64,000 bases of DNA from a bacterium (GCA_002686365.1 NZBZ01000001.1:58405-122404); one strand, 5' to 3'; positions 10,043 through 57,992 are shown, counted from the stretch's first letter. Numbers and translations are program-made. The notes: generated by a model not told the origin, from the sequence alone.

Positions 10043-10074
10043 ACACGGATTCCTTTGTTGGGAGGGGTTGGGGC

Positions 10075-26822: not shown

Positions 26823-26828
26823 TAGTAG

Positions 26829-28094: not shown

Positions 28095-28820
28095 CTATGT
28101 GATGGACAAGTCTTTTAAAGTTTTTTGAAGGTCTTCAGGAAGCTCTGATTCTACTTTTATTCTTCTCTTATTTGACAGAGAGAATTCGAGAGATTCAGCA
28201 TGCAGAAAGTGTCGTTTTAATCCAAATGTTTCTCGTTTTCCTGCGTAGAGCTTGTCTCCGACTACTGGGTGTCCAATACTTGCGAGGTGCACACGGATTT
28301 GATGAGTGCGTCCTGTTTTTGGTAAGACTTTGAGGAGTGTTAGAGAGGTTGTTTCTGTTTTTAGATTTTTGATTGGCTCAATTTTTGTTACTGCCTTTTT
28401 TACCATCTTCATTTTTCTTGCTCGGGTACTTCTTTTTATACTGCCGGACATGAGTCCGATTGGTTTATCAATAATCTGCTTTTTTTCTATTTTTCCGTGC
28501 GCAAGGGCTTTGTAAGTTTTTTTCACCTTGTGTTCCTGAAGAAGTTTTTTGAAGTACTCAAAGAAGGTTTGCGTTTTCGCAATAAGAAGGATGCCGGAAG
28601 TTTCTTTATCTAAACGATGAACAATGCCCGGCCGTTCTTTAGGGCTGTCCCCAACAGTTTTTGTTTCTGTAAATTTCTTTTTTATCCAGTCTGCGAGTGT
28701 TTCTTCCTGCTTTTTTGTTTTTTGAGGGATTCCATGCATAAGCAGGCCAGCAGGCTTGTGGATAATTGCAAAATCTTTTTCTTGATATAAAATCTTTATG
28801 TTTTCGGTTAATATTGACAT
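28095..28820 (-). CDS. RluA-family pseudouridine synthase
   Basis: Catalytic motif HRLDKETSGILLIAKT. Confidence 0.85.
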   Translation of the reverse strand: MSILTENIKILYQEKDFAIIHKPAGLLMHGIPQKTKKQEETLADWIKKKFTETKTVGDSPKERPGIVHRLDKETSGILLIAKTQTFFEYFKKLLQEHKVKKTYKALAHGKIEKKQIIDKPIGLMSGSIKRSTRARKMKMVKKAVTKIEPIKNLKTETTSLTLLKVLPKTGRTHQIRVHLASIGHPVVGDKLYAGKRETFGLKRHFLHAESLEFSLSNKRRIKVESELPEDLQKTLKDLSIT

Positions 28821-31488: not shown

Positions 31489-31560
31489 GGGCACATAGTT
31501 CAGTGGTAGAACGCTATCCTGATAAGATAGAGGTCCCAGGTTCGATCCCTGGTGTGCCCA
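31489..31560 (+). tRNA. tRNA-Ile (anticodon GAT)
   Basis: Acceptor GGGCACA/TGTGCCC, anticodon loop CTGATAA, T-arm CCAGGTTCGATCCCTGG. Confidence 0.85.
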
Positions 31561-31564
31561 CAGG

Positions 31565-31641
31565 GGGCCTGTAGCTCAGTTGGCTAGAGCGCCTCGTTTG
31601 CAACGAGGAGGTCGTCGGTTCGATTCCGATCAGGTCCACCA
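31565..31641 (+). tRNA. tRNA-Ala (anticodon TGC), CCA encoded
   Basis: Acceptor GGGCCTG with a G3-U70 pair, the Ala identity element. Anticodon loop TTTGCAA, T-arm GTCGGTTCGATTCCGAT, then ACCA. Confidence 0.85.
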
Positions 31642-35683: not shown

Positions 35684-35733
35684 TATTTATGTACACTTCA
35701 CTGACGATCGTCACCTAAGTGTACATATAATTA
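35684..35733. repeat. TGTACAC palindromic repeat, copy B
   Basis: ATTTATGTACACTT-cactgacgatcgtcacct-AAGTGTACATATAATT. The inner spacer is itself palindromic (TGACGATCGTCA). Confidence 0.5.
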
Positions 35734-37034: not shown

Positions 37035-37078
37035 ATTTATGTACACTCTCGATGCGACCGCATCAGGAGTGTACATAG
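37035..37078. repeat. TGTACAC palindromic repeat, copy C
   Basis: ATTTATGTACACTC-tcgatgcgaccgcatcag-GAGTGTACATAGG. It shares the inner ATGCGACCGCATCA with copy A. Confidence 0.5.
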
Positions 37079-37911
37079 GTTGCAATCTTAATATATTTAT
37101 ATATTTTGATATATTTTGGCACTAATTAGGGTTTTCCACAGAAAATTTGTGTTCTTTGTTTTTTTTGTATATGCTTGTACTCGGCGCTGTGTAGCACGTT
37201 TGCCACAAGGCTGTAAAAAGCCTGTGACAGCGCGTGTTATCCGGAATAACATGGTTGACAGAGAAGGTGCTTCTCGGAGCAGTCTTCTTTCGTCGAATAA
37301 GGAGAACGCATAACCTATGCGTGGCTGCGTCTCCTGAACGTAACGATCCCGTGAGTAAGCCCGTGCTTTGCCTTTTGTGCCAGTGGACTCAATAGGTGGT
37401 GACTACTACCTAAAGTCCTAATCAGAGTTGATAGGGGCACAGCATAAAGAGAAAAGCGCTATCGGGCATAAAACCGGGATGGGAAAGCTCGTAAGACTTC
37501 CCGAAACGGGGAACAACATCGCTATTCGCGTGTGGGGGCCGGAACCTAGTTCTTGCCCTCACAAAACGCTTTATATAAACACTTTAGGTGTTTTTTTGTT
37601 TTTTAGGCGTTAAATGCGTCAATGTGTCAAATTTTAGTGTTATTACTTTTGGACGACCGTAAAAGTGATGACATTAAAATGGAAAGATAAGAAAAAATCA
37701 TGAATTACAATTTTGTGGTGGTTATCCACACGTTCTTGAGATTTTGAGTGAGTATTGTATGGTTTTTACAGGTTCCAGCCATAGGTTCTCCCACCAAGGA
37801 GTTCCCTAATGGTGAGGGAACGTTCAAGCTAGGGAGGATTTTCGAGACTGGATTCACTTGTCTCGTTTCGAGACCAAGAGAGCTCTCAGCTCCTGAATAG
37901 GAGTTCTGGAC

Positions 37912-38895
37912 ATGACTTTCCAAACAGACCGTCCTCCGACGCAGACGTTTGACCATCGCCGCAAGTTCCGCAAGTTCCGCCGAGTGGCACCCTTCCTCGT
38001 CGCGATCGCAGCCGCAGTAGCGCTCGGCGTCCCGATGATGACGACGGACGCGTTGACCGACAGTCAACAGGCGACGGTAGCCCTGACCGCGGACCAAATC
38101 GGTGCGACGCTCAACGACGTGGCGACCCCGCGCGACACCGCGCAGATGTGCGTTTTCGCCGCGGGGACCGATGCGACTGACGCGAGCCCGGCCATAGTGC
38201 AAACGCTGACGGCCGAGCAGACTCGCCGAACCATGGACCTTGATGCGGTTGCCGACGCGACGCGCGGATCGCCCGAGACCGGCTCTTCGACGATGACCGT
38301 AGCCATGGTCACGCGGAGTACCTTCCCCGAGATGACGGATGGTGCACCCGCCGCTGTGGGCACGGTCGCTCTCGTTGACGAATCGGCCTCAGCTGAAACC
38401 ACCACTTCGGCATTCGTCGTGGAAATCGCGCAGTGTGCTGCCGGAATTGTCGAATCGACGACGGCGCGCGCAGAATCAACCCAGGAGATCACCGTTCAGG
38501 GCGTCTACTCAGAGCAGCACGGCATCGTCACGATGACCACGCAAATCGCCGTCCAGCCCGCTGAGCAGGCCGAGGTCGTCGAGACGTCAGCCGAAGTCGT
38601 TGGTACCATCGTCGCGATGACCATGGAGACCGCCGGTCAGAGCGCCGAACGTCAAGTCGAGATCGCGGCTATCACCGCTCAACATGGCATCGAGCAGATG
38701 GCGGCCGCGGAGTTCCCGGGACAGTACTGTGGTGAAGCAATCGCGATGGCGGCAGACAGCGGCCAGTGCGATGTACAGCGGATCGAGGCGGACGCGTTCT
38801 CACGGCACCCCCAAGTGGCGCTCGCAGTCACGCAGCACCGAAGCGCGGCGGTTGCGACGATGGCGGCGTCGGTCGACGCTCATCCGCGGGCCTGA
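37912..38895 (+). CDS. hypothetical Ala/Thr/Glu-rich secreted or membrane-anchored protein (GC-rich island 6)
   Basis: A basic N-terminus then a hydrophobic segment (FLVAIAAAVALGV). The rest is low-complexity and acidic. GC is about 62%. Confidence 0.35.
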   Translation: MTFQTDRPPTQTFDHRRKFRKFRRVAPFLVAIAAAVALGVPMMTTDALTDSQQATVALTADQIGATLNDVATPRDTAQMCVFAAGTDATDASPAIVQTLTAEQTRRTMDLDAVADATRGSPETGSSTMTVAMVTRSTFPEMTDGAPAAVGTVALVDESASAETTTSAFVVEIAQCAAGIVESTTARAESTQEITVQGVYSEQHGIVTMTTQIAVQPAEQAEVVETSAEVVGTIVAMTMETAGQSAERQVEIAAITAQHGIEQMAAAEFPGQYCGEAIAMAADSGQCDVQRIEADAFSRHPQVALAVTQHRSAAVATMAASVDAHPRA

Positions 38896-39021
38896 TCCTC
38901 GAGAGACCAGGCAGGATCCTCCACATTGGCTCTTCGGAGTCATCACACCAAGGTCTTCCTACAGACCACACGAGGCGACTACATGTTGCCTCTCTTTTTT
39001 TATATGCGCGCAAGCGCTTTT

Positions 39022-42367: not shown

Positions 42368-42925
42368 TTAGCTTTTACCTTTCTGCGCAGGCAGGGCTTC
42401 ATTAGCTTTCTTTTTTGGGGCCTCTTCTTTCTTTACTTGTTTTTTGATTGGCTTTAGCTTTTTCAATGCTTCGATTGTGGCCATTGCGTTTGTAAGTTTG
42501 TTTGTTGTGCGTCCAAGCATCTTTGCAGAGATATCTTTTACTCCTGCAAGGTCTAGAACTATTCGAGATGACCCTCCTGCAATAAGTCCGTGTCCTTTTC
42601 GGGTCGGCTTTAGACGTACTTTTGAAGCAGCATACTTTGCCTCCACATCATATGGAATTGTTCTTTCTTCTTTGAGCGGTACTACGAATATGTTTTTTTC
42701 CGCTACCTTCTTTGCTTTTTCAATGGAAAGCGGGACGTCAAGGCCTTTTGCAATCCCTACGCCAACCTTACCTCTTTTATTTCCAAGTACTACTGTTGCG
42801 CGGAAGCTGAATCGCTTTCCGCCCTTTACTACTCGGCTTACTCTTCGTATTTCTATGACCTTGTCGTCATACTCACTCTGCCTTTTCTGATAGGGCGCTC
42901 TTCCTCTGTGTTGTTGTGGTTTCAT
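42368..42925 (-). CDS. rpsE: 30S ribosomal protein S5
   Basis: VSRVVKGGKRFSFRATVVLGNKRGKVGVGIAKG. Confidence 0.9.
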   Translation of the reverse strand: MKPQQHRGRAPYQKRQSEYDDKVIEIRRVSRVVKGGKRFSFRATVVLGNKRGKVGVGIAKGLDVPLSIEKAKKVAEKNIFVVPLKEERTIPYDVEAKYAASKVRLKPTRKGHGLIAGGSSRIVLDLAGVKDISAKMLGRTTNKLTNAMATIEALKKLKPIKKQVKKEEAPKKKANEALPAQKGKS

Positions 42926-44466: not shown

Positions 44467-44493
44467 ATCGATAGCTTTTAGCTTATAGCTTCA

Positions 44494-45009
44494 TTAGCTT
44501 TTAGCTTTTGTCTTTTTCTTTTCTTCTTTGGCTTTCAAGGGTACTCTAATTTCCTTGTAGAAATCAAGCATTTTGTCCCTGTCTTTGGTTTTTGATACTG
44601 CGGTTATCTGCATCCCAAAGTTTACTTTTGATGTGTTCGGGTCGATTTCCGGAAATACAAGCTGATCTTTTAGTCCAATGTTTAGATTTCCTGCCTTATC
44701 TACGTTTTTTCTTGAAAGTCCACGGAAATCTTTTACACGAGGAAGAACAACGTGAATAAGCCTTTTTAAAAAGTCATCCATCTTGTTTCTTCGGAGGGTT
44801 ATCTTTATCCCTATGGTATCTCCAACCCTTGTTTTGAATCCGGCAATCGATTTTTTTGCGGGCATGTGTATTGGTCTCTGCCCTGTGATTGCCGCAAGTT
44901 CTTTTGTAATTTCCGGAAGGGTCTTGTCTTTGAAATTTGCCCCCTGACTTTGTCGGCCAACTCCTGCGTTTATTACCACTTTTTCAATTTTTTCTCGTAT
45001 CTTTTCCAT
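44494..45009 (-). CDS. rplE: 50S ribosomal protein L5
   Basis: L5 family, ...VVINAGVG...LPEITKELAAITGQRP. Confidence 0.9.
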   Translation of the reverse strand: MEKIREKIEKVVINAGVGRQSQGANFKDKTLPEITKELAAITGQRPIHMPAKKSIAGFKTRVGDTIGIKITLRRNKMDDFLKRLIHVVLPRVKDFRGLSRKNVDKAGNLNIGLKDQLVFPEIDPNTSKVNFGMQITAVSKTKDRDKMLDFYKEIRVPLKAKEEKKKTKAKS

Positions 45010-45294: not shown

Positions 45295-45660
45295 TTATAC
45301 AAGATCTTTTGCCAAAGATGCGATTGCGTCGAATCCTTTTTCTTTAACCTCTCTTGGAATGGGCCCGAATACTCTTGTTCCGCGAGGATTTTTTCCATCA
45401 ACTAGTACTGCTGCGTTTTCATCAAATCGAATGTATGATCCGTCTCTCCTTTTTGTTTCTTTTCTTGTACGCACTACAAGCGCTTTTACAATATCTTTCT
45501 TTTTCACCTGCTTTCTTGGCTCTGCAGTCTGAACTGAAGCCACAAGAACATCTCCAATTCTGGCATATCTTCGCCTTGTTCCTCCAAGAATTCTAAAGCA
45601 ACGCACTTTTTTTGCGCCTGAGTTGTCCGCTACTTTTAAAATTGTTCCTTCTTGAATCAT
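45295..45660 (-). CDS. rplN: 50S ribosomal protein L14
   Basis: [19 protein letters not shown]. Confidence 0.9.
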
Positions 45661-45664
45661 GTTA

Positions 45665-45967
45665 TTAGCTTATAGCTTCGTTAGCTTCACTAGCTTCATT
45701 AGCTTCGTTAGTTTCATTAGCTTCACTAGCTTTGTTTTCTTTTGTTTTCTCCACTATTTTCCACCTTTTGTCTTTACTTATTGGCCTTGTCTCTTCGATA
45801 ATCACCTCATCTCCTGTTTTGTACTCATTCTTTTCATCATGCGCCTTAAAACGCCTAGTTACCTTAATAAACTTCTTGTAGAGTGAGTGTTTTTTCAGTC
45901 TCGAGATTTCCACAACTCTCGTTTTTTCCATCTTATCGCTTACGATTGTACCTTTTAATTTTTTCAT
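45665..45967 (-). CDS. rpsQ: 30S ribosomal protein S17 with repetitive EANEA C-terminal tail
   Basis: [18 protein letters not shown] core. The tail [21 protein letters not shown] is encoded by the AGCTTC-repeat motif. Confidence 0.85.
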
Positions 45968-46096
45968 CCCTCACTCTTGGCGCATTGGGACGCCAAATTA
46001 ATACTTATTCTTTCGACTTGTGTGTTTCTTTGGTTCATTGTTTTGTTTTTGTCCCTTACCCTTACGCAGTTATGTGCCAAGAGTGTAGGGATTCAT
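45965..46096. mobile_element. MITE-like inverted-repeat element, copy 1
   Basis: Terminal inverted repeats CATCCCTCACTCTTGGCGCA ... TGTGCCAAGAGTGTAGGGAT, about 132 bp, intergenic between rpsQ and rpmC. Confidence 0.45.
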
Positions 46097-46100
46097 ATTA

Positions 46101-46337
46101 TTAAGACTTAGAATTTGATGTTTTTTCTCCTGCCTGCGCAGACAGGTCCTTTTCTGTTAAGACTGCGAGGAGCTGGGCGATTGATTTTTTTATATCTCGA
46201 ATTTCCCGAATATTTTTTACCTTTCCCATCGCAAGATCGTCACGAAGTCCGGCGAGCCTTTTTCTTTCTTCGCTCAATTCTTTTTTAATCTCTCCTTTTG
46301 TCTTTGTTTTGAATTCTTTCAGCTGTTTCTTTTTCAT
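46101..46337 (-). CDS. rpmC: 50S ribosomal protein L29
   Basis: 78 aa, helical, ELRDDLAMGKVKNIREIRDIKK. Confidence 0.8.
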   Translation of the reverse strand: MKKKQLKEFKTKTKGEIKKELSEERKRLAGLRDDLAMGKVKNIREIRDIKKSIAQLLAVLTEKDLSAQAGEKTSNSKS

Positions 46338-46437
46338 CCCTCACATAACCATACGCGTCTAAAATCTGTGCGCATGGCATTAAAATGTTCTCGACTACAA
46401 ATATATGGCTTTTGTTTTTTGTTATGTGAGGGATTCA
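46335..46437. mobile_element. MITE-like inverted-repeat element, copy 2
   Basis: Terminal inverted repeats ATCCCTCACATAAC ... GTTATGTGAGGGAT, about 103 bp, intergenic between rpmC and rplP. Confidence 0.45.
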
Positions 46438-46440
46438 TAC

Positions 46441-46854
46441 TTATTCTTTGGTAATAATTCGGGTTTTAATTGGCAGCTTATGACCTGCTTTTGTGAGCGC
46501 TTCTCTTGCCATCTCTTCTTCTACTCCATCTATTTCAAATAAAACTCGTCCCGGCCGCACTGATACAACGTGATGGTCTACATCTCCTTTTCCCCCTCCC
46601 ATTGTAACTTCAGGCGGGAACTTTGTTACCGGCTTATCAGGAAATACACGTATCCACACCTTTCCCTCTTTTTTTAGCGTGTGCGCAATTGTTTTTCGCA
46701 CAGCCTCTATCTGTCTGGCGGTTACCCATGAGGTCCCTAAAGCCTGGATGCCAATGCTTCCATGACTTAATGCAATTCCTCTGGTTTCTTTTGCTCTCTT
46801 TCGCGCTCTGCCCTTATGGCGCTTTCTAAATTTTTGTTTCTTTGGCTCTAACAT
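46441..46854 (-). CDS. rplP: 50S ribosomal protein L16
   Basis: MLEPKKQKFRKRHKGR... Confidence 0.9.
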   Translation of the reverse strand: MLEPKKQKFRKRHKGRARKRAKETRGIALSHGSIGIQALGTSWVTARQIEAVRKTIAHTLKKEGKVWIRVFPDKPVTKFPPEVTMGGGKGDVDHHVVSVRPGRVLFEIDGVEEEMAREALTKAGHKLPIKTRIITKE

Positions 46855-46916
46855 TGTTTTTCACTAATTGCACTAATGAGCACGAATATCACGAATTCGT
46901 ATTAGTGCCATTTGTG

Positions 46917-47597
46917 TTAATTTGTGTTATTGGTGTCGTCAAATATTTCTCCTTTATATATCCATACTTTTACACCAATAGTTCCATAGGAGTTGTATGA
47001 TGTTGTTTCTCCATAATCAATATTTGCCCGTAGAGTCTGAAGTGGCATCCTCCCGAATGCGAGCCACTCTCTTCTTGATATTTCTGCGCCGTTTAATCTC
47101 CCTGCAAGTTTAATCTTTGCCCCCTGCACTTCTCTATTTTGTTTTAGGAGATCGAGATGCCGCTTCATAATTCTTCTGTATGGAAGCCGTCGTTCTATAT
47201 CAAATGCTATCTGTCCAGCTACTACAGAGGCAGACATCTCAGTGCGTTTTAGCTCTTCAATATTTATGTTGAGCGCAAATTGTTCTGATGCGTTGTTTTT
47301 TCTTCGGAGCGCGTTCATCTCCTTTGCCAAAAAATTTTTAAGGTCTTCTATTCCCTTTCCTCCCCGCCCTATGATAAGGCCCGGACGGCTCGCTTTTACA
47401 GAAACTTTAACTTCTTTTCCGGTGCGTTCAATGCGAATCTCATCAATTCCTGCCTGCGCGATTTTTTCTTTTACAATTTCACGAATAAGATGGTCCTCTT
47501 CAATAAAGAATTTTTGAGACTTCTTAAAGAACCATCTGCTTTTCCAGGGCTTTGTGATTCCTAAACGTAGTGAGATTGGTTTTATTTTTTGGGCCAT
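46917..47597 (-). CDS. rpsC: 30S ribosomal protein S3
   Basis: KH plus S3-C domains. PISLRLGITKPWKSRWF. Confidence 0.9.
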   Translation of the reverse strand: MAQKIKPISLRLGITKPWKSRWFFKKSQKFFIEEDHLIREIVKEKIAQAGIDEIRIERTGKEVKVSVKASRPGLIIGRGGKGIEDLKNFLAKEMNALRRKNNASEQFALNINIEELKRTEMSASVVAGQIAFDIERRLPYRRIMKRHLDLLKQNREVQGAKIKLAGRLNGAEISRREWLAFGRMPLQTLRANIDYGETTSYNSYGTIGVKVWIYKGEIFDDTNNTN

Positions 47598-47662
47598 ACT
47601 TTTAGCTTATAGCTTTTTTAGCCTTAGGCTAATCCGCCTTTGGCGGAAGCTTCATTAGCTTC

Positions 47663-48211
47663 TTAGATTGATTTACGTCGGAAGAAGCGTTTTATTCCTC
47701 CGGATTTTTCCGGACCTTTTGTTTCCAGCTCTTTTTCTGCTCGTTTTGAATCCTTTTTCTCTGCCTGAATAGATAGGTCCTCTTCTTTCTTCTCAGTCTT
47801 TTTTCCTTTCTTTTCTGTTTTTTCTTCTTTCTTTTCTTTTTCTTTTTTTATAAATACGTACTTTGGCTGTGTAATCTTATCAGACTCTCCCAATACTACT
47901 GTAATGTGGCTGGTTTTTTTCTGAATTGAGCTTGCTGAACCTCGAGCCCTTGGAATCCAGCGCTTCAGCATTGGTCCATTGTCTACTTTTATTTCTTTGA
48001 TGTACAACTTTTCTTCATCTAACTCTCTATTTTTTGCGTTTGCCGCTGCGGAACGTAATAGCCTCAGGATAAATATACTTGCCCTCTTTGGAGAAACGGA
48101 AAGCTGGGCCTCTGCCTCTTTTACTGGAAGGCCCCGAATAAGATCAACAACGAGACGCGCTTTTCGTGGTGCGATTCGTTTGTGTCTTAATTTTGCTGTT
48201 ACTTCTTTCAT
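47663..48211 (-). CDS. rplV: 50S ribosomal protein L22 with KE-rich tail
   Basis: AKLRHKRIAPRKARLVVDLIRG. Confidence 0.85.
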   Translation of the reverse strand: MKEVTAKLRHKRIAPRKARLVVDLIRGLPVKEAEAQLSVSPKRASIFILRLLRSAAANAKNRELDEEKLYIKEIKVDNGPMLKRWIPRARGSASSIQKKTSHITVVLGESDKITQPKYVFIKKEKEKKEEKTEKKGKKTEKKEEDLSIQAEKKDSKRAEKELETKGPEKSGGIKRFFRRKSI

Positions 48212-48216
48212 GTTAT

Positions 48217-48555
48217 TTACTTTGCATTACGTTCAGGTGTTGGCTGTCCGGGAGCTGTTTGCGGAGCGCCTCCTTCTCTTTCCTGCTGCTCTAATTCTTT
48301 CTGTATTCTTCCTCCATGCCGTACGAACTTTCTTGTTATAGCAAATTCTCCCAAGCGATGTCCTATCATATCTTCTCCTACATTTACTTCAAGAAAATCT
48401 TTCCCATTATGGACTAAGAAGGTAAACCCAACCATTTCCGGAGAAATCTCTGATGCCCTAGACCATGTTTTGATAGGCGTGTTTTTACTTCCCTTTTCTA
48501 TCTTTTTCAAGAGTTTTGCATCTATATATGGGCCTTTTTTTAGACTTCGTGACAT
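48217..48555 (-). CDS. rpsS: 30S ribosomal protein S19
   Basis: [12 protein letters not shown]... The start was trimmed to the internal Met. The ORF track extends further upstream into rplB. Confidence 0.85.
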
Positions 48556-48566
48556 ATATTTAAGAC

Positions 48567-49394
48567 TTATCTTTTTGTTTTTCTTCGTTTGATGATTAGC
48601 GTATTCGACCACTTCTTTTTCTTTCTTGTTTTTCTTCCTCCAGTTACCTTGCCCCATTTTGTCTTTGGCCGCTTTGTTCCGCGCTGAGCTCTGCCTTCTC
48701 CTCCTCCGTATGGATGATCAACGGCGTTCATTGCAGATCCTCGCACAGTTGGACGAATTCCTCTCCATCTTGACCTTCCTGCTTTTCCAAGAACCTCCAA
48801 ATTATGCTCTGAATTTGATACCTTTCCAATTGTTGCGTATCCGCTCTTTAAAACTTTACGAACTTCTCCAGATGGAATCTTTAACTGCGCATACTTGCCC
48901 TCGTTTCCCAAAACTTGAACTGCTGAGCCGGCAGACCTTGCGAGCTGCCCTCCTTTTTTTGGAGTAAGTTCTACGTTGTGTACAAATGTTCCCACTGGAA
49001 TTCTTTCCAGTTTTGTTCGATTTCCTTCTTTAAACTCTGCTTTTTCTGATGTGATAATTTTGCTTCCTTTTCGCAGTTCGTCTGATGCAAGGATATAACG
49101 CCTTTCTCCATCTTCGTATATAACCTTTGCAATATGCGCTGAACGATATGGGTCATATTCAATGCCTTCTACCCTTCCCCACACATCAAATTTTTTCTGC
49201 TTAAAATCAACAATGCGATACTGCTTTTTATGCCCTCCGCCTTTATGTCGCGTTGTTATCCTTCCTTTACTGTTTCGTCCTGCTCGTTTTTTCAAATGCT
49301 TTAAGAGGGCCTTTGCCGGCTTTTCTTTTGACAAATCCGCAGTTGCTTTTGTCATTCCTCTTCGTCCTGGTGATGTTGGTTTATACTTCTTCAT
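48567..49394 (-). CDS. rplB: 50S ribosomal protein L2
   Basis: ...[13 protein letters not shown]... and a C-terminal GGGEGR motif. Confidence 0.95.
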
Positions 49395-49398
49395 ACTT

Positions 49399-49815
49399 TT
49401 AGACCATATCTATCTTTTCTCCTTTCTTTAACGTTACTATTGCCTTTTTAAAACCTGATTTTTTTCCTGTAGAAGATCGAAATCTTTTTGTCTTTCCCTG
49501 ACGCCTTATTGTCCTTACACTTTTTATACCCACCTTATATCGGAATTCTATTTCTTCTTTTATTGTTTTTTTATTTGCGCCTGCTTGTACGTGAAATACA
49601 TAGGCGTTTTGCTCTACTAGGCTGGATGCCTTTTCACTTATCCAAGGATTTTTCACTCTGTACGCGTCTATCTTTCCCTCAACCTCGTCAGTGCGTCTTT
49701 GTTTTTTTGCCTTGGACGGAGTACTTGATTTTACGGCTTTTTTATCAGCCTTCTTATCAGATGCCGCCTCCTTCTTTTTTGGCCCTCCTTTAAATATGTT
49801 TTTGAAAATTGCCAT
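49399..49815 (-). CDS. rplW: 50S ribosomal protein L23 with N-terminal Lys-rich extension
   Basis: YVFHVQAGANKKTIKEEIEFRYKVGIKSVRT. Confidence 0.8.
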   Translation of the reverse strand: MAIFKNIFKGGPKKKEAASDKKADKKAVKSSTPSKAKKQRRTDEVEGKIDAYRVKNPWISEKASSLVEQNAYVFHVQAGANKKTIKEEIEFRYKVGIKSVRTIRRQGKTKRFRSSTGKKSGFKKAIVTLKKGEKIDMV

Positions 49816-49833
49816 ATTGTTAGCTTATAGCTT

Positions 49834-50502
49834 TTAGCTTTTAGCTTCCTTAGTTTTTTTCTTTCCAGTCTGGTTGTTTATAAATTCTTCTACTGCCTCT
49901 TTTTCAAAGATAATGAGCTTGTGCGTTATGCAGTCCCGCAGATTCACTCCGTTTGGATATGTAATTTTGTTCTTTTCTATATTTCTACCTGCAAGAATAG
50001 AATTTTTTTCTCCCTGCTTGGAAACAAGAAGAGTCGTCAGTCTTGTCTTTTTTTCTACTTTTGTTATTTCTTTGATCGCCTCTGTCATTTGTTTTGTTTT
50101 TGGCTCTGTAACTCCAAAGGTGTCTAATATTTTTACTTCTCCGTCTTTTAGCTTTCTTGAAAGAGTTGAATAGAGAGCTCTTTTTCGCATCTTTTTATTT
50201 ACTTTTTTTGTAAAGTTTCTTTCTTTTAGCGGGCCAAACGTAACACCTCCTCCAGCCCAGATTGGAGATCGGCTTGAGCCGTGACGCGCTCGTCCGGTTC
50301 CCTTTTGTCTCCATGGTTTTTTTCCTCCTCCCCGCACTTCGCTTCTGTCTTTTGCGTGCGCCAAAGGACTTCTCCTGCTTGATTGCATAGAAGTAAACAC
50401 TTGGTGTACGAGATTTGGATTCCACGGCCTTCCAAAGATTTCATTTGAAAGCTCTATGGTCCCACCTTTCTTATTCTCTTTGTTTAAAATATCTACCTTC
50501 AT
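49834..50502 (-). CDS. rplD: 50S ribosomal protein L4
   Basis: ...GGGKKPWRQKGTGRARHGS. Confidence 0.85.
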   Translation of the reverse strand: MKVDILNKENKKGGTIELSNEIFGRPWNPNLVHQVFTSMQSSRRSPLAHAKDRSEVRGGGKKPWRQKGTGRARHGSSRSPIWAGGGVTFGPLKERNFTKKVNKKMRKRALYSTLSRKLKDGEVKILDTFGVTEPKTKQMTEAIKEITKVEKKTRLTTLLVSKQGEKNSILAGRNIEKNKITYPNGVNLRDCITHKLIIFEKEAVEEFINNQTGKKKTKEAKS

Positions 50503-50506
50503 GATA

Positions 50507-51061
50507 TTAGCTTTTATCTGCCTGCGCAGGCAGGGCTTCGTTAGCTTTATTGTCTGCCTCCTTTTTCTTTTCTTCTTTTTCCTGTTTTTTCTTGGATGGT
50601 TCTGATGTTTCTGCTTTTTCTTTCTTTTCTTCTTTTAGACCTGTGATGTGGATTTCAACCTCACTACCTCTCATGCCTGGAACTGGTCCTTTTACGAGAA
50701 TTGTTTTCTCTTCGAAATTTATTTCTTCTACGCACACATTTTTAACAGTGAGATTTTCACCCCCCATACGGCCGGCCATCTTCTGGCCTGGAATAACTCT
50801 TGCAGGATCTGTTGCTCCGATTGAGCCTGGAGCGCGAAGACTGTGTTTCTGACCGTGAGATGCCGGACCTCCGTGAAATCCGTGTCGTTTTACCACGCCC
50901 TGAAATCCCTTCCCCTTACTTTTTCCTCGGATGTGTACAATATCTCCTTCTTTTAGTTCTTTCTCCCCTTCTTTTTCAATCCTTAATACGGTAACCGGAA
51001 TTACCGCATCCTCCTTCCAAATTTGGGTCATGCCCACCTTTTTTGCTGCTACTTTTGTCAT
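50507..51061 (-). CDS. rplC: 50S ribosomal protein L3 with KE-rich tail
   Basis: ...KKVGMTQIW...GKSKGKGFQGVVKRHGF. The start was placed at the internal MTKVAAKK. Confidence 0.85.
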   Translation of the reverse strand: MTKVAAKKVGMTQIWKEDAVIPVTVLRIEKEGEKELKEGDIVHIRGKSKGKGFQGVVKRHGFHGGPASHGQKHSLRAPGSIGATDPARVIPGQKMAGRMGGENLTVKNVCVEEINFEEKTILVKGPVPGMRGSEVEIHITGLKEEKKEKAETSEPSKKKQEKEEKKKEADNKANEALPAQADKS

Positions 51062-51094
51062 ACTAACCATGCTAAAAAAAATAACCAAGACCAT

Positions 51095-51484
51095 GCCCGG
51101 CTATTCCATAGAGCTATTCCATAGACGTCCGAGAGGTCTTTAAATGACATCGGGGAGGTCTTACTATGTAAGATTAATTCCCGTCCAAGGGATTGTAGCG
51201 TATATGTGTTTTTTTGTAAAGACAGCGAATATTGAACCGAGCACTCAATACATTGAGTGCTTAACAAGTTTAATATGTGCCAAGCACATAACGTCTTATG
51301 CGCTTGGTCCTCACAACATCGACCTCGCTAAAACTTACTTAGTTTAGTTGACGGCCGTCAACTAAACTAAGTAAACACCAATACGCTCGGGATGTTAGGT
51401 GCCCAGCACTCAAAGCTTTGAGTGCTGGATTAAGGTTTTGTTACTAAAACTGGAGCACTAATGCTCCAGTTTTAGACAAAGCCC
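51095..51484. repeat. cluster of five perfect palindromes inside the S10 operon (between rpsJ and rplC)
   Basis: The five are GAGCACTCAAT-aca-TTGAGTGCT, TGTGC-caa-GCACA, CTTAGTTTAGTTGACG-gc-CGTCAACTAAACTAAG, AGCACTCAAA-gc-TTTGAGTGCT and CTGGAGCA-cta-TGCTCCAG. Confidence 0.5.
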
Positions 51485-51811
51485 TTAACCCATTTTTACC
51501 TCAATGTCGACTCCTGCCGGGAGGTTTAAATCTGTGAGAGATTCTACGATTTTTTGCGCAGGATTTAGTATATCAATGAGGCGTTTATGTATTCTCATCT
51601 CAAACTGCTCTCTAGACTTTTTATGTACAAATGTAGAGCGATTTACAGTGTATTTTCGTATTTCTGTGGGCAGAGGAATTGGCCCTATTGCCTCACCCCC
51701 GTGCCTTTTAATTGCCTCAATAATCTGCTTGGCTGAGTTCTCAATCAACTTTGAATCATATGCCTTAATCCGAATCCGAAGTTTTTCTTTTGGTTCTTCT
51801 TTTTTTGGCAT
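51485..51811 (-). CDS. rpsJ: 30S ribosomal protein S10
   Basis: LRIRIKAYDSKLIENSAKQIIE... Canonical S10. Confidence 0.9.
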   Translation of the reverse strand: MPKKEEPKEKLRIRIKAYDSKLIENSAKQIIEAIKRHGGEAIGPIPLPTEIRKYTVNRSTFVHKKSREQFEMRIHKRLIDILNPAQKIVESLTDLNLPAGVDIEVKMG

Positions 51812-51880
51812 GTTTATTTGCTAATTTACACGAATTTGGATGCGCCTTAAGCGCACCCTGATTCACGTACATTGGCGAAT

Positions 51881-53080
51881 CTATTTAGTAATCTTTGTTA
51901 CAACTCCAGCGCCTACAGTCTTTCCTCCTTCGCGAATTGCGAATCTTTGCTTTTCTTCAAGCGCAACAGGGGCGATAAGCTTTATAGAAACGTTTGCGGT
52001 ATCTCCCGGCATTACCATCTCGATACCTTCTCCAAGCGTTACTTCACCCGTTACGTCAGTCGTTCTCAGATAGAACTGCGGCTTGTATCCTTTGAAGAAT
52101 GGAGTGTGTCGTCCGCCTTCCTCTTTGCTCAAGACATACACTTCTGCCTCGAATTCGGTGTGCGGCGTTACACTCCCCGGCTTTGCGACTACCTGACCTC
52201 GCTCTACGTCCTCTTTTTTGAGGCCGCGTAGAAGAACTCCTACGTTGTCACCAGCCTGACCTTCATCGAGGAGCTTCTGAAACATTTCTACTCCTGTAAC
52301 AACGGTCTTTTGCGTGTCACGGAGTCCAATGATTTCTATTTCCTCGTTTATTTTAACAATTCCTCTCTCAACTCTTCCGGTTACCACTGTTCCTCTTCCT
52401 TCAATTGAGAATACATCTTCAATTGGCATGAGAAACGGCTTATCAACATCTCTAACTGGCTCTGGGATGTTTGAATCGAGAGCTTCGACGAGTTCGAGTA
52501 TCGGCTTCGCATCTTCATCGTCAGCAGACTTTGTTTCCAAGGCTTTTAGTGCTGAACCTTTGATTATTGGAGTGTCGTCTCCCGGAAACTCATACTTATT
52601 CAAGAGCTCTCGAACTTCTGACTCCACGAGTTCGACGAGTTCTGGGTCGTCAACTGCGTCGGTCTTATTCAAGAAAACGATAATTGCTGGAACGCCCACC
52701 TGTCGCGCGAGAAGAATGTGCTCTCGCGTTTGAGGCATTGGGCCGTCTGCAGCAGAGACTACAAGAACTGCGCCATCCATTTGCGCTGCGCCGGTAATCA
52801 TGTTTTTGATGTAGTCGGCGTGTCCTGGCGCGTCAATGTGCGCATAGTGTCTCTTTTCTGACTCATACTCTGAGTGATGCAGTGCAATAGTAATTCCACG
52901 CTCTTTTTCTTCAGGAGCATTATCGATCTGATCAACACCTTCTGCCTTTTTTGCAAGTCCTTTCATATTAAGAACGTGCATCATTGCCGCAGTAAGAGTT
53001 GTCTTTCCGTGGTCGACGTGTCCAATTGTTCCAACATTTACATGAGGTTTGGACCTGTCAAATTTTTCTTTTTCAGCCAT
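51881..53080 (-). CDS. tuf: elongation factor Tu
   Basis: [22 protein letters not shown]. Full EF-Tu. Confidence 0.95.
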
Positions 53081-53260
53081 GGTTAGTAATTAGCTTATAG
53101 CTTCATTAGCTTGTTAGCTTTCGGAGTTTATTTTTCCTATGAGCTAACAGCTAAAAACTAAAGAGCTATTATATATTTCGACCTATGAACACAAATAAAA
53201 TGTGTGCTTTATTATATCAAACCCATTTATTATTGGCTATTTGGTAAGAATTTGTCAATT

Positions 53261-55396
53261 TTACTGCTTTTTTCCTTCTGCAATCTCTTCCGCAATATTA
53301 CCTGGCACTTCCTCATAATGATCAAATTCCATGCTGAATGAGCCTCTTCCCTGAGTCATTGAACGAAGAGTTGTTGAATATCCAAACATTTCTGCGAGCG
53401 GTATATTCGCCTCAATTACCCGAATTTTCTCACCCTCTCCCATCTCAAGAATACTGCCTCTTTTCGAACTTACATCTCCTGTCGTGTCTCCAAGAAAGTT
53501 TTCCGGAATGATAATCTGAACCTTCATAATTGGCTCTAGGAGTATTGGCTTTGCCCGTTTTGCCCCCTCCTGAAGCGCCATTGATGCTGCGATTTTAAAT
53601 GCCATTTCAGAAGAGTCAACATCATGGAATGAGCCGTCATAAAGAGTTACCTGCATATCTACCATTTGGTATCCGGCTACGATTCCCTTGTCCATTGCCT
53701 CTTTGATTCCTTTTTCTACTGCGGGTATAAATTCCTGAGGAATAGTTCCTCCTTTAATTTTGTTTATAAATTCAAAACCAGTTCCTTTCTCAAGAGGTTC
53801 AATTTTCAGCCATACATGTCCGTACTGACCGCGTCCTCCGGACTGACGAATATACTTCCCTTCTGCTTCAGCCACTGCCTTAATTGTTTCTTTATAGGCA
53901 ACTTGCGGCCGTCCAACACTCGCTTCTACGCTAAACTCTCTTTTCATTCTTTCTACAAGAACTTCAAGATGGAGCTCTCCCATTCCAGCAATTATTGTCT
54001 GCCCTGTTTCTTCATCGCTTCCAACTTGGAATGTTGGGTCTTCTTCCGCGAGCTTTCGCAGAGCTATACTCATTTTTTCCTGGTCAACTTTTGTTTTTGG
54101 TTCAATTCCTACTGAAATTACCGGCTCTGGAAATGTAATAGCCTCAAGAAGCACTGGCTTTTCTGGGTCTGTGAGCGTATCTCCGGTCGTTGTATCTTTT
54201 AATCCTACGATTGCTCCTAAGTCTCCTGCATATATCTCGTCAACTTCTTCTCTGTGGTTTGCGTGGATACGCAGCATTCTTCCTACTCGCTCTTGCTTCT
54301 CTTTTGTTGTGTTTAGAATATAGCTCCCCTTCTTCATTGTTCCTGAATATATTCGAAAGAAGGTTAGTGACCCTACGAATGGATCAGATGCTATTTTAAA
54401 AGCAATGGCTGCAAGCGGCTCCTCATCTTTAGGGTGACGCTCTTCGTCTTCGTGAGTTTTTGGATTTATTCCTTTTACCGGAGGAACTTCTGATGGAGAT
54501 GGAAGATAGTCGATTACTGCATCAAGAAGAAGCTGTACTCCTTTATTTTTAAGAGCTGAGCCGCAAAAGACAGGGACTATCTTGTTCTCTATTGTTGCTT
54601 TTCGCAAGGCAATCTTCAGGTCTTTAATTGGAATTTCTTTCTCATCAAGATATGCCTCAAGGAGCTTTTCATCTGTTTCTGCTATTGCTTCTATTGTTTT
54701 CTTTCGAGTTTTTTCTACTTCTTCTTTCATGCCTTTTGGCACTTCTTCCTCTATAATATTTTCTCCTTTTTCTCCTTCGAACTTGTATGCCCTTTGTTTT
54801 AAGATATCTACAATACCTTCGAAATTCGCCTCCTCTCCTATTGGAAGCTGAAGAGGAATTGCATTTTTTGTAAGCCGTTCCCTGATTGATTCAAAGCTTT
54901 TTTCAAAACTTGCTCCAGTTCTATCTAGTTTATTGATAAAACATATTCTCGGCACCTTGTATTCATCTGCATAGTGCCAATTTGTCTCGGATTGAGGCTC
55001 TACTCCAGCTACTCCATCAAACACAACTACTGCGCCGTCGAGAACGCGGAGTGAGCGTTTCACCTCTACTGTGAAGTCTATGTGTCCGGGAGTATCTATG
55101 ATATTAATGCGGTGTTCATGCTCCTTCTTTATTTTTTCGAGCTCCTCTTCACCTTTCCCCTCCTTCTTATCTGTTGAAATCCAAAAGCAGGTTGTTGCTG
55201 CTGCAGTTATGGTAATTCCTCTTTCTTTTTCCTGCTCCATCCAGTCCATGATTGCTTCTCCTTCGTGGACTTCTCCAATTTTATGAGAAATGCCTGTATA
55301 AAAAAGTACCCGTTCGGTTACAGTTGTTTTACCAGCATCAATATGAGCTATGATGCCTATATCTCTTACTTTTTCTATTGGGTACTGTCTTGGCAT
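53261..55396 (-). CDS. fusA: elongation factor G
   Basis: [13 protein letters not shown], a GTPase domain, and EF-G domains II-V. Confidence 0.95.
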
Positions 55397-55450
55397 GCCT
55401 AAAATCAGCTTATAGCTTTTAGCTTGTAGCTTATGGCTTGTATAATTTTA

Positions 55451-55924
55451 CTATCTTCTAACAAAGCTTGCGAAGGCGCGGTTTGCCTCTGCTACTCTAT
55501 GCGTGTCCTGCTTCTTCTTTATTGCCTCACCTTCATTTTTTGATGCTGCGATTATTTGCTCGGCAAGCTCTTTGTGCATCGGCTTTCCTTTCTTAGATTT
55601 TGCCGCGTTTATAATCCAATGTGCTGCTAAAAAGAATTTTCTTTCCGGACGAACTTCCATGGGGATTTGATAGTTTGCGCCTCCTACTCTGCGGGAAACT
55701 ACCTCTACCATAGGAGTAGCATTTGCCATCGCGTCCTCAAACGTTTTTGCGGGGTCAGACTTTGTTTTTTTCTTTACTTCTTCAAGCGCCCCATAAAATA
55801 TTTTTTCTGCTACGGCTTTCTCTCCGTCTAACATTATATAGTTAATAAACCGACCCATGTCGATTCTTCCATATTTAAAATCCGGTTTTGAATCAATTTT
55901 TTTGTATGCTCCTCTTTTTCTCAT
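55451..55924 (-). CDS. rpsG: 30S ribosomal protein S7
   Basis: S7 family. Confidence 0.9.
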   Translation of the reverse strand: MRKRGAYKKIDSKPDFKYGRIDMGRFINYIMLDGEKAVAEKIFYGALEEVKKKTKSDPAKTFEDAMANATPMVEVVSRRVGGANYQIPMEVRPERKFFLAAHWIINAAKSKKGKPMHKELAEQIIAASKNEGEAIKKKQDTHRVAEANRAFASFVRR

Positions 55925-55926
55925 GA

Positions 55927-56406
55927 TTATTCTTCTTTAGGCGCTTCTTCGGGCGCTTCTTTTGGCTCCTCTGATTTTTCCTTTGCTGCCTTATCGCCCT
56001 TGCCTTTTTTAGATCCATACTTTGAGCGTCCTCTTTTTCGTTCTGCAACTCCTTCGGTGTCGAGCCTTCCTCGTACAATGTGATACCTAACACCCGGCAA
56101 ATCTTTTACTCTTCCTCCCCGAAGAAGGACTACGGAGTGTTCCTGCAGATTATGCCCTTCGCCTGGAATGTATGCTGAAACCTCCATTCCATTTGTAAGA
56201 CGTACACGAGCTACTTTTCTGAGCGCAGAGTTTGGTTTTTTTGGTGTGGTTGTAAATACCTTTACACACACTCCTCGTTTGAATGGAGAGGGTGATTTTA
56301 CTGGTCTGTTTTTTATGTAATTAAAATATGACCGGAGTGCCGGTGTCTTTTCCTTTTTGGAAGATCTCTTTCTGGCTTTTTTGATAAGTTGGTTTGTTGA
56401 CGGCAT
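55927..56406 (-). CDS. rpsL: 30S ribosomal protein S12 with about 30-aa C-terminal extension
   Basis: ...[21 protein letters not shown]...[25 protein letters not shown]. Confidence 0.9.
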
Positions 56407-56505
56407 AAACTAGCTTATAGCTTCTATATTATATAAATTATATGAAGCGGTTTAAGGATATGGGAAAAAACCTCTATTTGTCAAGTGTTTTAGGTGTTTT
56501 TTGCT

Positions 56506-57111
56506 TTATATAAGGAGTTCAAAAAGGAAGTTTATGATTGGAGTGATTATACGGAAGCCAAAAAAGATGAAAAATACAAGAAGAATCATTCCATATCTCT
56601 CTAGAAATGCCCGCATTTGATATGCAGAACGAGGAAGGAGGGCAAATAGAACTTTTGAGCCGTCTAATGGAGGCAGCGGGACCAGATTAAAGACTGCAAG
56701 AATCACATTTACCCATACAATCATTGCAAAAAGCGGGTATGTTGCTGCAAGAATCGGAACATTTACTACTATGCTTATCCGCACCAATGCCCCGAAAATT
56801 GCGGCAATAAGAAGATTGCTTAAGGGGCCTGCGATAGCAATTAGAGCTGCATCTCGTTCAGGATTCTTTAAGTGATAGGGATTATATGGAACTGGTTTTG
56901 CCCATCCGAAAATAAAACTTCCTGGCAGAATTGCGAGAAGCAAAGGAAGAATAACTGAACCAAAAGGGTCAAGATGCTTTATTGGATTTAACGTAAGACG
57001 GCCTGCAAGCCGCGCAGTTGGATCGCCGAGCCTATCCGCAACAAAGCCATGGGTCACTTCATGTACCACGACTGACAGGATAAGAACAATTATTAGAAAA
57101 ATAGTATCCAC
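56506..57111 (-). CDS. membrane metalloprotease, site-2 protease (M50)-like
   Basis: HEVTHGF (HExxH) in TM1, multi-TM, and a second motif around LDGSK. Confidence 0.55.
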   Translation of the reverse strand: MDTIFLIIVLILSVVVHEVTHGFVADRLGDPTARLAGRLTLNPIKHLDPFGSVILPLLLAILPGSFIFGWAKPVPYNPYHLKNPERDAALIAIAGPLSNLLIAAIFGALVRISIVVNVPILAATYPLFAMIVWVNVILAVFNLVPLPPLDGSKVLFALLPRSAYQMRAFLERYGMILLVFFIFFGFRIITPIINFLFELLI

Positions 57112-57190
57112 AAAGATTAAATGTCAGAAATTATTTATGAATCATTAATTATATACATTTTTCGGAATTTTGTGCTAGAATAATTTTCGT

Positions 57191-57811
57191 ATGAAAGGAT
57201 TTTCACGATTAGTACTGTTTCTCACACTCATTGTTCTTGTAGTTGGGTTCTTTATGGTTTTGAACCGACTTTCAGATATTCGTGGTGAGATTCAGACAAT
57301 TCAGCTTGCCCTTGATTTGTCAGGCAATTCAGAAGGACAGATTATTTCTGAAGGTGAGGAGAATGAGCCTTCAGAAGACGGCTCAACTGAGCCGCAGGAG
57401 TCTTCGGTGGTGGGCATTCCAACTGCTATTATTTTTAATACCATGTCGAGCCCCACACTTCAGCCGCAGACAAATATTGCTGTGATTGTTGAGAATGTTT
57501 CAAAAAGTGACGATGGGGAAGTTTTAGTACGGCTTAAGGCGTTTACGAGCGAGGCATCGTCCTATAGCGCCCTTCCTGTTCAGGATTTAGTTGAAATTGT
57601 TAATCTTTCTTCGGGAGTGAATCAGCGCCCAGCAGATGTTAAGGGAAGTTTCAGCTCAATCCCGCCAAAGAGTGTTGTGAGCGGCACAGCAGTATTCCGC
57701 GTATCTCTTACACAGCGTTCAATTATTCTGCAAATTAATGCAGATGATGAGATAAGATTTTATCAATTTAATTTTAATAAGAAGACATATAAAGAAATAG
57801 TCTTAGGATAA
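57191..57811 (+). CDS. membrane-anchored hypothetical protein
   Basis: N-terminal TM then a Ser/Glu-rich ectodomain. Confidence 0.4.
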   Translation: MKGFSRLVLFLTLIVLVVGFFMVLNRLSDIRGEIQTIQLALDLSGNSEGQIISEGEENEPSEDGSTEPQESSVVGIPTAIIFNTMSSPTLQPQTNIAVIVENVSKSDDGEVLVRLKAFTSEASSYSALPVQDLVEIVNLSSGVNQRPADVKGSFSSIPPKSVVSGTAVFRVSLTQRSIILQINADDEIRFYQFNFNKKTYKEIVLG

Positions 57812-57847
57812 TTGACACTTTTAAAGAAAGTGACTATTCTGCTTTTG

Positions 57848-57992
57848 TTATGAATCCCATCACCCTTGGCGCATAACATTGCGTAGGGCAAAGGGATAGA
57901 ATAAGATAATCAGGCATAAATACAATATTCAGTCGAAATAATATCTTTAAGTTGGCGACACAATGCGCCAAGAGTGAGGGATGAAACAGTGC
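57848..57992. mobile_element. MITE-like inverted-repeat element, copy 3 (inverted orientation)
   Basis: TGAATCCCATCACCCTTGGCGCAT ... ATGCGCCAAGAGTGAGGGATGAAA. The right end is the reverse complement of the copy-1 left end. Confidence 0.45.

Follow-up and report, generated by a model that had tools for sequence, protein, structure and literature searches.

Three palindromic elements of the window

The window, as we call the whole 64,000-nucleotide (nt) stretch of DNA analysed here (GCA_002686365.1 NZBZ01000001.1:58405-122404), contains three short palindromic elements, designated elements 1, 2 and 3, directly before the ribosomal-protein genes for S17, L29 and L28, respectively, the first two within the S10-spc operon. 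The L16 protein of the window is most similar to proteins named Jorgensenbacteria, Wolfebacteria and 'Patescibacteria group', and we therefore place the organism among the Parcubacteria-like bacteria of the candidate phyla radiation (CPR). The public gene tables used were those of the Tara Oceans metagenome contig (133 kb) that matches the window. An earlier examination of this DNA by itself (the sequence-only reading) had described elements that resemble transposable elements of the miniature inverted-repeat kind (MITEs) at these places, and all three are present, with the boundaries given in Table 1, where the flanking direct repeats are counted in.

Read on the strand of the neighbouring genes, each of the three elements has the form 5'-TATGAATCCC(T)CAC ... 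GTGAGGGATGAA-3'; in element 1 the 5' end is TATGAATCCCTACAC and the 3' end GTGAGGGATGAA. The terminal inverted repeats that had been described are real. In element 2 they form a perfect closing stem of 14 base pairs (bp; ATCCCTCACATAAC/GTTATGTGAGGGAT), and in elements 1 and 3 they extend over ~19-21 bp with one bulge and one mismatch each. Elements 1 and 3 are homologous over their full length on opposite strands, which accounts for the complementarity that had been noticed between the left end of the former and the right end of the latter (40 nt, 93% complementary), and element 2 has only the ends in common with them. Each element is predicted to form a single long hairpin closed by its terminal repeats, with a folding energy of −40.4 kcal/mol and a z score of −5.8 for element 1, and z scores of −4.8 and −4.1 for elements 2 and 3. 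None of 200 shuffled sequences folded as well. The scores obtained with a covariance model were 72.7, 81.7 and 67.6 bits for elements 1, 2 and 3. The bare 9-mer ATCCCTCAC, with one mismatch allowed, was not above chance in count, and the two-ended pattern was found in none of 100 shuffles of the window, indicating that the signal resides in the paired ends.

The elements lie among co-directional ribosomal genes and end on start codons, and there is no T-run at any of them. A direct repeat, ATGAA, flanks each element. The 3' copy contains the start codon of the downstream gene, and the 5' copy supplies an additional upstream ATG, which in element 1 is located 4 nt past the preceding stop codon (L29). 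An element-free junction would read ...AAGT-ATGAAAAAG... As for the public annotation, the L28 gene (57981-58169) behind element 3 is uncalled in the contig's gene table and the L28 protein is not on record, and the range recorded for L29 is 280 nt compared with an open reading frame (ORF) of 237 nt and does not translate to the protein. The elements seem to disturb gene calling.

Table 1. Positions of the palindromic elements, their parts and the solitary hairpins, counted from the first nucleotide of the window
Feature	Position	Strand	Description
Element 1	45963-46097	minus	135 nt; between L29 stop (46101) and S17 ATG (45967); subfamily A
Element 1, 5' direct repeat	46092-46096	minus	ATGAA; upstream ATG (AUG1)
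Element 1, 3' direct repeat	45963-45967	minus	ATGAA; S17 start codon plus two bases (S17 gene, 45665-45967)
Element 1, internal GTCG	46014-46017	minus	context CAAGTCGAAAGA
Element 1, upstream frame	46070-46096	minus	8 codons (MNPYTLGT); ends within 5' arm of closing stem
Element 2	46333-46439	minus	107 nt; between L16 stop (46441) and L29 ATG (46337); subfamily B
Element 2, 5' direct repeat	46434-46438	minus	ATGAA; AUG1, 2 nt past L16 stop codon
Element 2, 3' direct repeat	46333-46337	minus	ATGAA; L29 start (L29 gene, 46101-46337)
Element 2, internal GTCG	46392-46395	minus	context GTAGTCGAGAAC
Element 2, upstream frame	46334-46438	minus	34 codons (MNPSHNKK...LCEG); spans element; UGA overlaps L29 AUG (AUGA)
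Element 3	57849-57985	plus	137 nt; directly 5' of L28, start codon (57981) included; subfamily A
Element 3, 5' direct repeat	57850-57854	plus	ATGAA; AUG1, 2-3 nt past inferred transcription start
Element 3, 3' direct repeat	57981-57985	plus	ATGAA; L28 start (L28 gene, 57981-58169)
Element 3, internal GTCG	57932-57935	plus	context TCAGTCGAAATA
Element 3, upstream frame	57850-57876	plus	8 codons (MNPITLGA); ends within 5' arm of closing stem
Promoter-like TTGACA-17-TATTCT	57812-57840	plus	10/12 consensus matches; inferred start of L28 transcript 2-3 nt before AUG1 of element 3
Solitary hairpin TCCTCACATAAAT/ATTTATGTGAGGGA	18228-18262	.	followed by CAAGTCC; fold z −5.9 and −4.6
Solitary hairpin TCCATCACATAG/CTATGTGATGGA	28073-28106	.	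followed by CAAGTCT; fold z −5.0 and −6.6

Copies on other contigs, their flanks and element-free sites

The sequence-only reading had named further copies and target-site duplications as the tests of a mobile origin. Metagenome contigs were scanned for TATGAATCCC-N85-115-GTGAGGGATGAA, and 15 loci were obtained, one of which was the window's own and three of which were one element in three samples. One locus (L025), which was GC-rich and met a stop 6 codons downstream, was set aside as a chance match, leaving 11 new elements. Four more copies (L014b, L014c, L014d and L015b) were found with the covariance model R1, a mismatch-tolerant scan and a pattern-free script. The family thus comprises 18 unique copies of 105-137 nt, 3 in the window and 15 elsewhere, on contigs from Tara marine assemblies and several metagenomes of the Joint Genome Institute (JGI). 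Four of them lie within the 12.4 kb of contig L014, before four genes of one polysaccharide-synthesis cluster, and contig L015 carries two. The GTDB representative genomes, a collection in which the species is not included, gave three matches to GCGCCAAGAGTGAGGGAT, of which the two inspected were embedded in ordinary sequence and chance-like and the third was in a Chloroflexia genome. Two scans of viral contigs brought up nothing but unrelated sequences.

The copies fall into subfamilies whose interiors recur between contigs. Subfamily A (elements 1 and 3 and L017; ~135 nt) has a hairpin TTGGCGnCnCAATGCGCCAAG, and its 3' arm GCGCCAAG has two possible pairing partners, the 5' arm and a local TTGGCG. 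Subfamily B (~107 nt) consists of element 2, L014a, L014b, L022 and L024, and subfamily C of L014c, L014d and L015b, with the stem CCCGTTAGA/TCTAACGGG. Only ATGAR-TCCC ... GGG-ATGAR is universal. The closing stems of the 15 copies that were folded are predicted to be 13-27 bp long. Of the stem cells, 95.9% are paired, and the inner stem pairs have changed on both sides in 4 of 4 cases; in subfamily C, GTTAGA/TCTAAC stands in place of TCAC/GTGA. Inside the elements, GTCG is present in 12 of 17 copies, compared with 2.4±1.4 in shuffles. This test and that on the open upstream frame described below took in 17 copies, leaving out L014d, which was found later.

Two side observations concern these contigs. 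On L014, a stretch just 5' of L014b (10040-10100; TTGTCGAAAACATTTTATACAATACACGCGC) resembles the interior of subfamily B but is devoid of ends, and may be a decayed copy. On L015 (7197-7469 and 7105-7214), the L14 gene 5' of element L015a is truncated at about residue 85 and its frame continues into the element (..RFDDRYKGYESLT*), reflecting either a deletion beside the element or a join made at the repeat during assembly.

We also examined whether the elements belong to a known class of RNA. With Rfam 15, only three tRNAs in the window passed the gathering threshold, and at E values up to 10 there were two matches on the elements, both far under threshold. Known ribozymes, riboswitches and ribosomal-protein leaders were therefore rejected, as no such family appeared at gathering or permissive thresholds. 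Group I, group II and bulge-helix-bulge introns were also rejected, judging from the size of the elements and the lack of defining bulges or core in their sequences.

In all 18 copies, the ATG at the 3' end is the start of a real gene. The downstream genes encode L29 (twice), S17, L28, L24, S19, YchF, an EngB-like GTPase, a penicillin-binding protein, UDP-glucose dehydrogenase, a glycosyltransferase, a methyltransferase, a cupin, an MFS transporter and several membrane proteins. Pfam allowed the start to be checked in families with an N-terminal domain, and the domains begin at residues 2-13 of the proteins (L24, L29, YchF, EngB-like GTPase, UDP-glucose dehydrogenase and methyltransferase). 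The search pattern demanded ATGAA, but not that this ATGAA be a start. Taking into account that the window contains 335 ATGAR sites, of which 20 are at start codons and ~48 are intergenic and not starts, the 5-mer alone does not explain the exclusive use of starts. The orientation relative to the gene is also uniform in the copies found without the two-ended pattern (7 of 7). The elements had been called intergenic, which holds insofar as they are situated between genes; it does not describe their 3' end, which is the start codon of the downstream gene, their single orientation, or the frame that opens at the 5' ATG. Six of the 18 copies precede ribosomal-protein genes and two precede genes for ribosome-associated GTPases. 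Occupancy of starts alone might mean that integration is tied to expressed gene starts, or might be a matter of survivorship, in that in reduced genomes prone to deletion a copy containing a start codon would be lost only through precise excision. The excess of ribosomal-protein genes is compatible with start-tied integration, with survivorship and with a regulatory role.

All 18 copies have a 5-bp direct repeat, ATGAR, on either side, and the bases beyond the 5-mer do not match. In L014d and L015b, both ends read ATGAG and the genes start with Met-Ser, and in all other copies both ends read ATGAA, including L014c, which shares subfamily and contig with L014d. Among the seven copies found independently of the pattern, five are ATGAA/ATGAA, two are ATGAG/ATGAG, and none is discordant. 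The repeat thus tracks the start of the target gene and behaves like a target-site duplication, which is suggestive although not conclusive.

Element-free sites were seen in four relatives (L041, L043, L044 and L007). A Tara relative with 93% identical L16 (L041) has the same L29 start, ATGAAAAAGAAACAGCTG, but preceded by an unrelated 85-nt spacer that consists of GCCTAAA-like repeats. In relatives with 86% and 80% identical L16, the L16 and L29 genes are adjacent or overlapping, and in one with 71% identical L29 the spacers at the two junctions are 29 nt and 51 nt. The L16-L29 junction of L021 carries a copy whose interior is unrelated. These comparisons indicate that the elements of the window are insertions. 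With the further copies and the flanking repeats, they lend support to the MITE-like reading proposed from the sequence. A related element of 95 nt with the ends CCCCCTCACTTGAA/TTCAAGTGAGGGGG was also observed in L043 (388-482; L16 86% identical), between the S3 and L16 genes.

Upstream frames, leaders and other features of the window

The ATG at the 5' end of the elements opens a frame that begins MNPSH, with lengths of 5-44 codons, and the peptides are not conserved past MNPSH. This frame is open through the whole element in 9 of 17 copies, with 32-44 codons. When the interiors were shuffled, 1.7±1.25 open frames were expected, and none of 5000 shuffles reached 9. Five of the nine open frames end at a UGA overlapping the real AUG, three at the UGA in GUGAGGG, 6 nt upstream in frame, and one at a UAA located 4 nt ahead of the AUG. 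Of the first 15 copies, 0 and 2 are open in the two remaining frames, and out-of-frame read-on into the gene does not occur. Since the peptides are not conserved, it seems to be the openness of the frame, and not a peptide product, that is kept.

The host genes are not preceded by Shine-Dalgarno (SD) sequences. A 4-mer SD core at positions −20 to −4 was present in 10% of 67 genes, compared with 14% of random 17-mers. We considered GTGAGGG at the 3' end of the elements as an SD sequence and rejected it, as GAGG is only 1 nt from the AUG in a genome without SD enrichment. No promoter was identified inside the elements, apart from one promoter-like match in element 3, and no internal SD function was apparent.

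Many leaders in the window have tandem repeats of ~7 nt directly 5' of the start codon (AAGCTAW, TCCTAWR/TAGGAYA and CACTAAT/CACGAAT), located at 44467-44509, 45652-45691, 47591-47624, 49821-49860, 53079-53116, 55413-55452, 56411-56443 and 5319-5358, with further examples at 19788, 29327, 43291 and 61347 and at 5004-5055 and 46849-46900. The same junctions in relatives have other repeat units, GCCTAAA in L041 and ATTCGCG/CACGAAT in L045. The leader repeats, together with the absence of SD sequences, suggest repeat-type translation leaders with a fast turnover. In L015b, the upstream ATG of the element comes after the gene's native repeat-type leader. A repeat of the AAGCTA type with a 9-nt period also enters the 3' end of the S17 gene (45673-45741), encoding a 21-residue tail; in L004, whose L29 is identical, the called S17 is 88 residues compared with 100, and the called start differs too.

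Both solitary hairpins that had been reported are present, each followed by GGACAAGTC. They have in common the arm CCTCACATAA/TTATGTGAGG and a CAAGTCC tail, and a similar pair is found on L014. On the minus strand, the hairpin at 18228-18262 lies 103 nt past the GatB stop and is directly followed by TTGACA. The hairpin at 28073-28106 overlaps the stop of a pseudouridine synthase gene (28095-28820, minus) and, on the same strand, is directly followed by a promoter-like TTGACT-17-TACTAT before the L19 gene. The hairpins may act as terminators or insulators, or may be relatives of the long elements akin to REP (repetitive extragenic palindromic) sequences. As to the proposal that they are built from the same sequence as the long elements, the arm is indeed in common, and it is the only link that could be shown.

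Other palindromes were noted in the window. The sequence CTGCCTGCGCAGGCAGG occurs near the 3' ends of genes at 791-819, 42373-42401, 46124-46152 and 50512-50540. At least three of these genes encode ribosomal proteins (L29, L3 and S5). The palindrome is translated as tails of the type ..PAQAG/PAQAD.. and is possibly a second family of palindromic insertions, inside coding sequence. A third family of hairpins, ATTTATGTACACTC..GAGTGTACATA with a loop of the GCGACCGC type, is intergenic (10723-10768, 35685-35730 and 37035-37080), with one copy 55 nt past a gene end.

Among the remaining features, a 232-residue ORF with a LAGLIDADG_3 homing-endonuclease domain (26878-27576, minus) overlaps, at its own 3' end, a tRNA-Leu(GAG) gene (26828-26913) on the same strand. 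Islands with a G+C content of 50-64% stand out from the ~41% of the genome at 38001-39000 (ORF 37912-38895), 6-8 kb, 25-27 kb, 29-31 kb and 58.2-59.4 kb, and at least in the parts at 38-39 kb, 25-26.5 kb, 29-31 kb and 58.5-59 kb they contain ORFs that have no Pfam matches in the public tables. A tRNA-Ile and tRNA-Ala pair (31489-31641) has no adjoining rRNA gene. A conserved 23S rRNA sequence, AGTACCGTGAGGGAAAGGTGAAAAG, was found at ~15579 of L047, which is part of the same contig past position 1 of the window, and this places a 23S rRNA gene a few kb beyond the window's edge.

Origin of the elements and comparison with known systems

Taken together, the elements probably represent a family of small (105-137 nt), non-coding hairpin insertions of the MITE/REP type in Parcubacteria-like CPR bacteria, with the start codon as target and with a translational relay. 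Four of five features of MITEs were found, namely small size without coding for a transposase, inverted repeats, target duplication, and multiple copies with presence/absence. An element of this kind would integrate at an ATGAR start codon, in one orientation relative to the gene and with duplication of the 5-bp target, presumably through an enzyme acting in trans. The product would be ATGAR-TCCC(stem)...GTCG...(3' hairpin)...(stem)GGG-ATGAR-gene. The element would be transcribed together with the gene, and in the RNA the ends would pair into a stem of 13-27 bp, burying the true start codon. The upstream ATG would retain the gene's original leader or stop-start junction and open a short frame. 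A ribosome starting there would melt the stem, terminate on or next to the true AUG and re-initiate. Such a relay, which we infer from the frame statistics, would make the insertion nearly harmless, even in the S10-spc operon of an organism without SD sequences.

Several of our results weigh against this interpretation. The covariation of the direct repeats rests on two informative copies (P ~0.05). As the retrieval of 14 of the 18 copies relied on a pattern fixing TATGAATCCC and GTGAGGGATGAA, the conservation of end bases and the orientation of these 14 are partly circular. The upstream frame is short (5-22 codons), mostly ending in the 5' arm of the stem, in 8 of 17 copies, including elements 1 and 3, and in L014d as well. 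When the 5' side was held single-stranded in predicted folds, the real AUG was freed inconsistently, with unpaired probabilities of 0.05-0.58, and the relay is thus unsupported for this class of copies. The 95-nt related element of L043 lies 46 nt before the L16 start, without ATGAR flanks and off any start codon. The organism of the window has as few as 3 copies in ~84 kb of sequence. Finally, neither the window nor a further 20 kb of the contig nor L014 yielded a transposase or recombinase with matching ends; the earlier statement that the window is free of transposases agrees with the public gene tables covering it, in which no transposase domain appears.

A more specific proposal is that the family is a start-codon-homing element, whose integration is mechanistically coupled to expressed gene starts, for example via single-stranded DNA or RNA where initiation regions are highly transcribed and translated, and which carries a dedicated relay made up of the upstream ATG, the open frame and the 3'-end stops in two frames. 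Alternatively, it may be a domesticated translation-control module in CPR bacteria lacking SD sequences. Homing would account for why only starts are occupied, why there is one orientation and why ribosomal-protein genes are in excess, and we regard proposals of this kind as tentative and on balance rather doubtful.

The main rival to mobile DNA is a cis-regulatory RNA of the host, a leader that hides the start codon of ribosome-related genes and has spread through its usefulness. Opening might come about through upstream translation, a bound factor or temperature; alternatively, processing of the leader by RNase III would set the relative output of the genes in one operon. A number of observations would suit such a role, including the single orientation to the gene (7 of 7 pattern-independent copies), the covarying stem, and a conserved GTCG and 3' hairpin that go beyond what recognition of the ends needs. 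To these may be added the 6 of 18 copies before ribosomal-protein genes with the two before GTPase genes, and the alternative pairing of the subfamily A arm GCGCCAAG, which is attenuator-like. The organism encodes RNase III, and Correia elements are known substrates of this enzyme (PMC10969869). However, the same junctions are element-free in relatives whose L16 is 80-93% identical, and the L16-L29 copy of L021 has an unrelated interior. The downstream genes also include those for the cell wall, sugar metabolism and membrane proteins, the direct repeats track the target sequence, and no Rfam family is matched. We consider a host regulatory RNA unlikely.

The nearly fixed flanking 5-mer could instead be a target or core, and not the duplication of a staggered cut, if the elements derived from the palindrome-associated IS200/IS605 insertion sequences (IS), inserting 3' of a fixed pentanucleotide, or from site-specific recombination with a crossover within a 5-bp core. 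Orientation-specific insertion and hairpin-forming ends with a subterminal 3' hairpin would be in line with this, and a single-stranded target would suit a preference for highly transcribed genes. Yet IS200/IS605 elements, which have separate subterminal hairpins on the left and on the right, have no inverted repeats that pair end to end and make no target duplication, whereas here pairing of one end with the other extends over 13-27 bp and the right-hand 5-mer differs by target (ATGAG and ATGAA) within one subfamily on one contig. Element 3 is inverted relative to elements 1 and 2 within 12 kb, matching the direction of the genes and not one direction of replication; the GC skew did not provide a usable replication signal. 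The gene tables covering the window, its flanks and L014 list no TnpA, TnpB or recombinase. The IS200/IS605 partner suggested by the sequence-only reading was thus not found, the anatomy is a poor fit, agreeing with the defining features of IS200/IS605 in the fixed 5-mer and the single orientation alone, and an origin of this type appears improbable. Least credible of all is that the elements are gene-specific terminators or chance palindromes without a family relationship. Both solitary hairpins do lie at gene ends, and that at 28073-28106 scores as terminator-like on the minus strand. The long elements, by contrast, stand among co-directional ribosomal genes, end on start codons and have no T-run, their ends, GTCG and subfamily interiors recur on unrelated contigs, and the pattern had no match in shuffles. 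For the three long elements, the terminator reading was excluded, as they abut start codons in an operon and their ends recur before unrelated genes elsewhere.

If our interpretation of the family as start-codon insertions with a relay is true, it would reveal a route by which selfish DNA persists in the most conserved operons of highly reduced genomes, where imprecise deletion of an element would take the start codon along. The elements would also be a naturally occurring system in which to test re-initiation and translational coupling in bacteria without SD sequences, their conserved ends and GTCG would point to an enzyme or factor in CPR bacteria that recognizes them, and the uncalled L28 and misranged L29 in public tables would be a warning for annotation. 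In the literature, searched for MITEs of CPR bacteria, for the motif and for repeats at start codons, we found no description of palindromic elements that are specific for start codons and orientation and maintain an upstream frame, and none for CPR bacteria.

The family resembles the MITEs Correia (Neisseria), ERIC (enterobacteria) and bcr1 (Bacillus) in its small size, non-coding nature, inverted and direct repeats, presence/absence between relatives and long RNA hairpins. The duplication of bcr1 is a fixed 5-bp sequence, TTTAT. In contrast to the present family, known MITEs have not been reported to be start-codon-specific, to have a single orientation or to regenerate a start. The copies within one genome are here very divergent inside, with only (A)TGAR-TCCC...GGG-ATGAR and GTCG in common, and the family has no known cognate insertion sequence. 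Bacterial MITEs such as Correia are co-transcribed with their neighbours, and Correia hairpins are cut by RNase III (PMC3184786, PMC10969869). Neisseria REP2 and Borrelia IR repeats are located immediately 5' of ORFs and carry the downstream ATG (PMC3184786, citing Morelle 2003 and Dunn 1994). REP2 lacks terminal inverted repeats and supplies a promoter and ribosome-binding site of its own, unlike the present elements with their end-to-end pairing, duplicated ATGAR, upstream frame and sites within operons.

Like the REP sequences and the REPIN doublets formed from them, which are mobilized by RAYT transposases, the sequences described here include solitary palindromes at gene ends and longer hairpins in intergenic and intra-operon positions. 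Unlike REPINs, which show no tie to start codons, each long element is a single hairpin with a large loop and not an inverted doublet of a complete palindrome, and no RAYT gene or conserved GTAG-type head was seen in the sequence examined. Rickettsia palindromic elements (RPE) are palindromic selfish repeats whose compatibility with translation lets them persist in essential genes (PMC3184786, PMC10969869). They are inserted in frame within coding sequences and become part of the protein, whereas the present elements precede the coding sequence and their frame is closed by stops at the 3' end. In having a short frame at the foot of a long hairpin that ends beside the true start, where a ribosome that terminates could re-initiate, the elements may be likened to upstream-ORF or stop-start (AUGA) coupling and to the ribosome shunting of caulimoviruses, which are expression signals of hosts or viruses and not repeated insertions.

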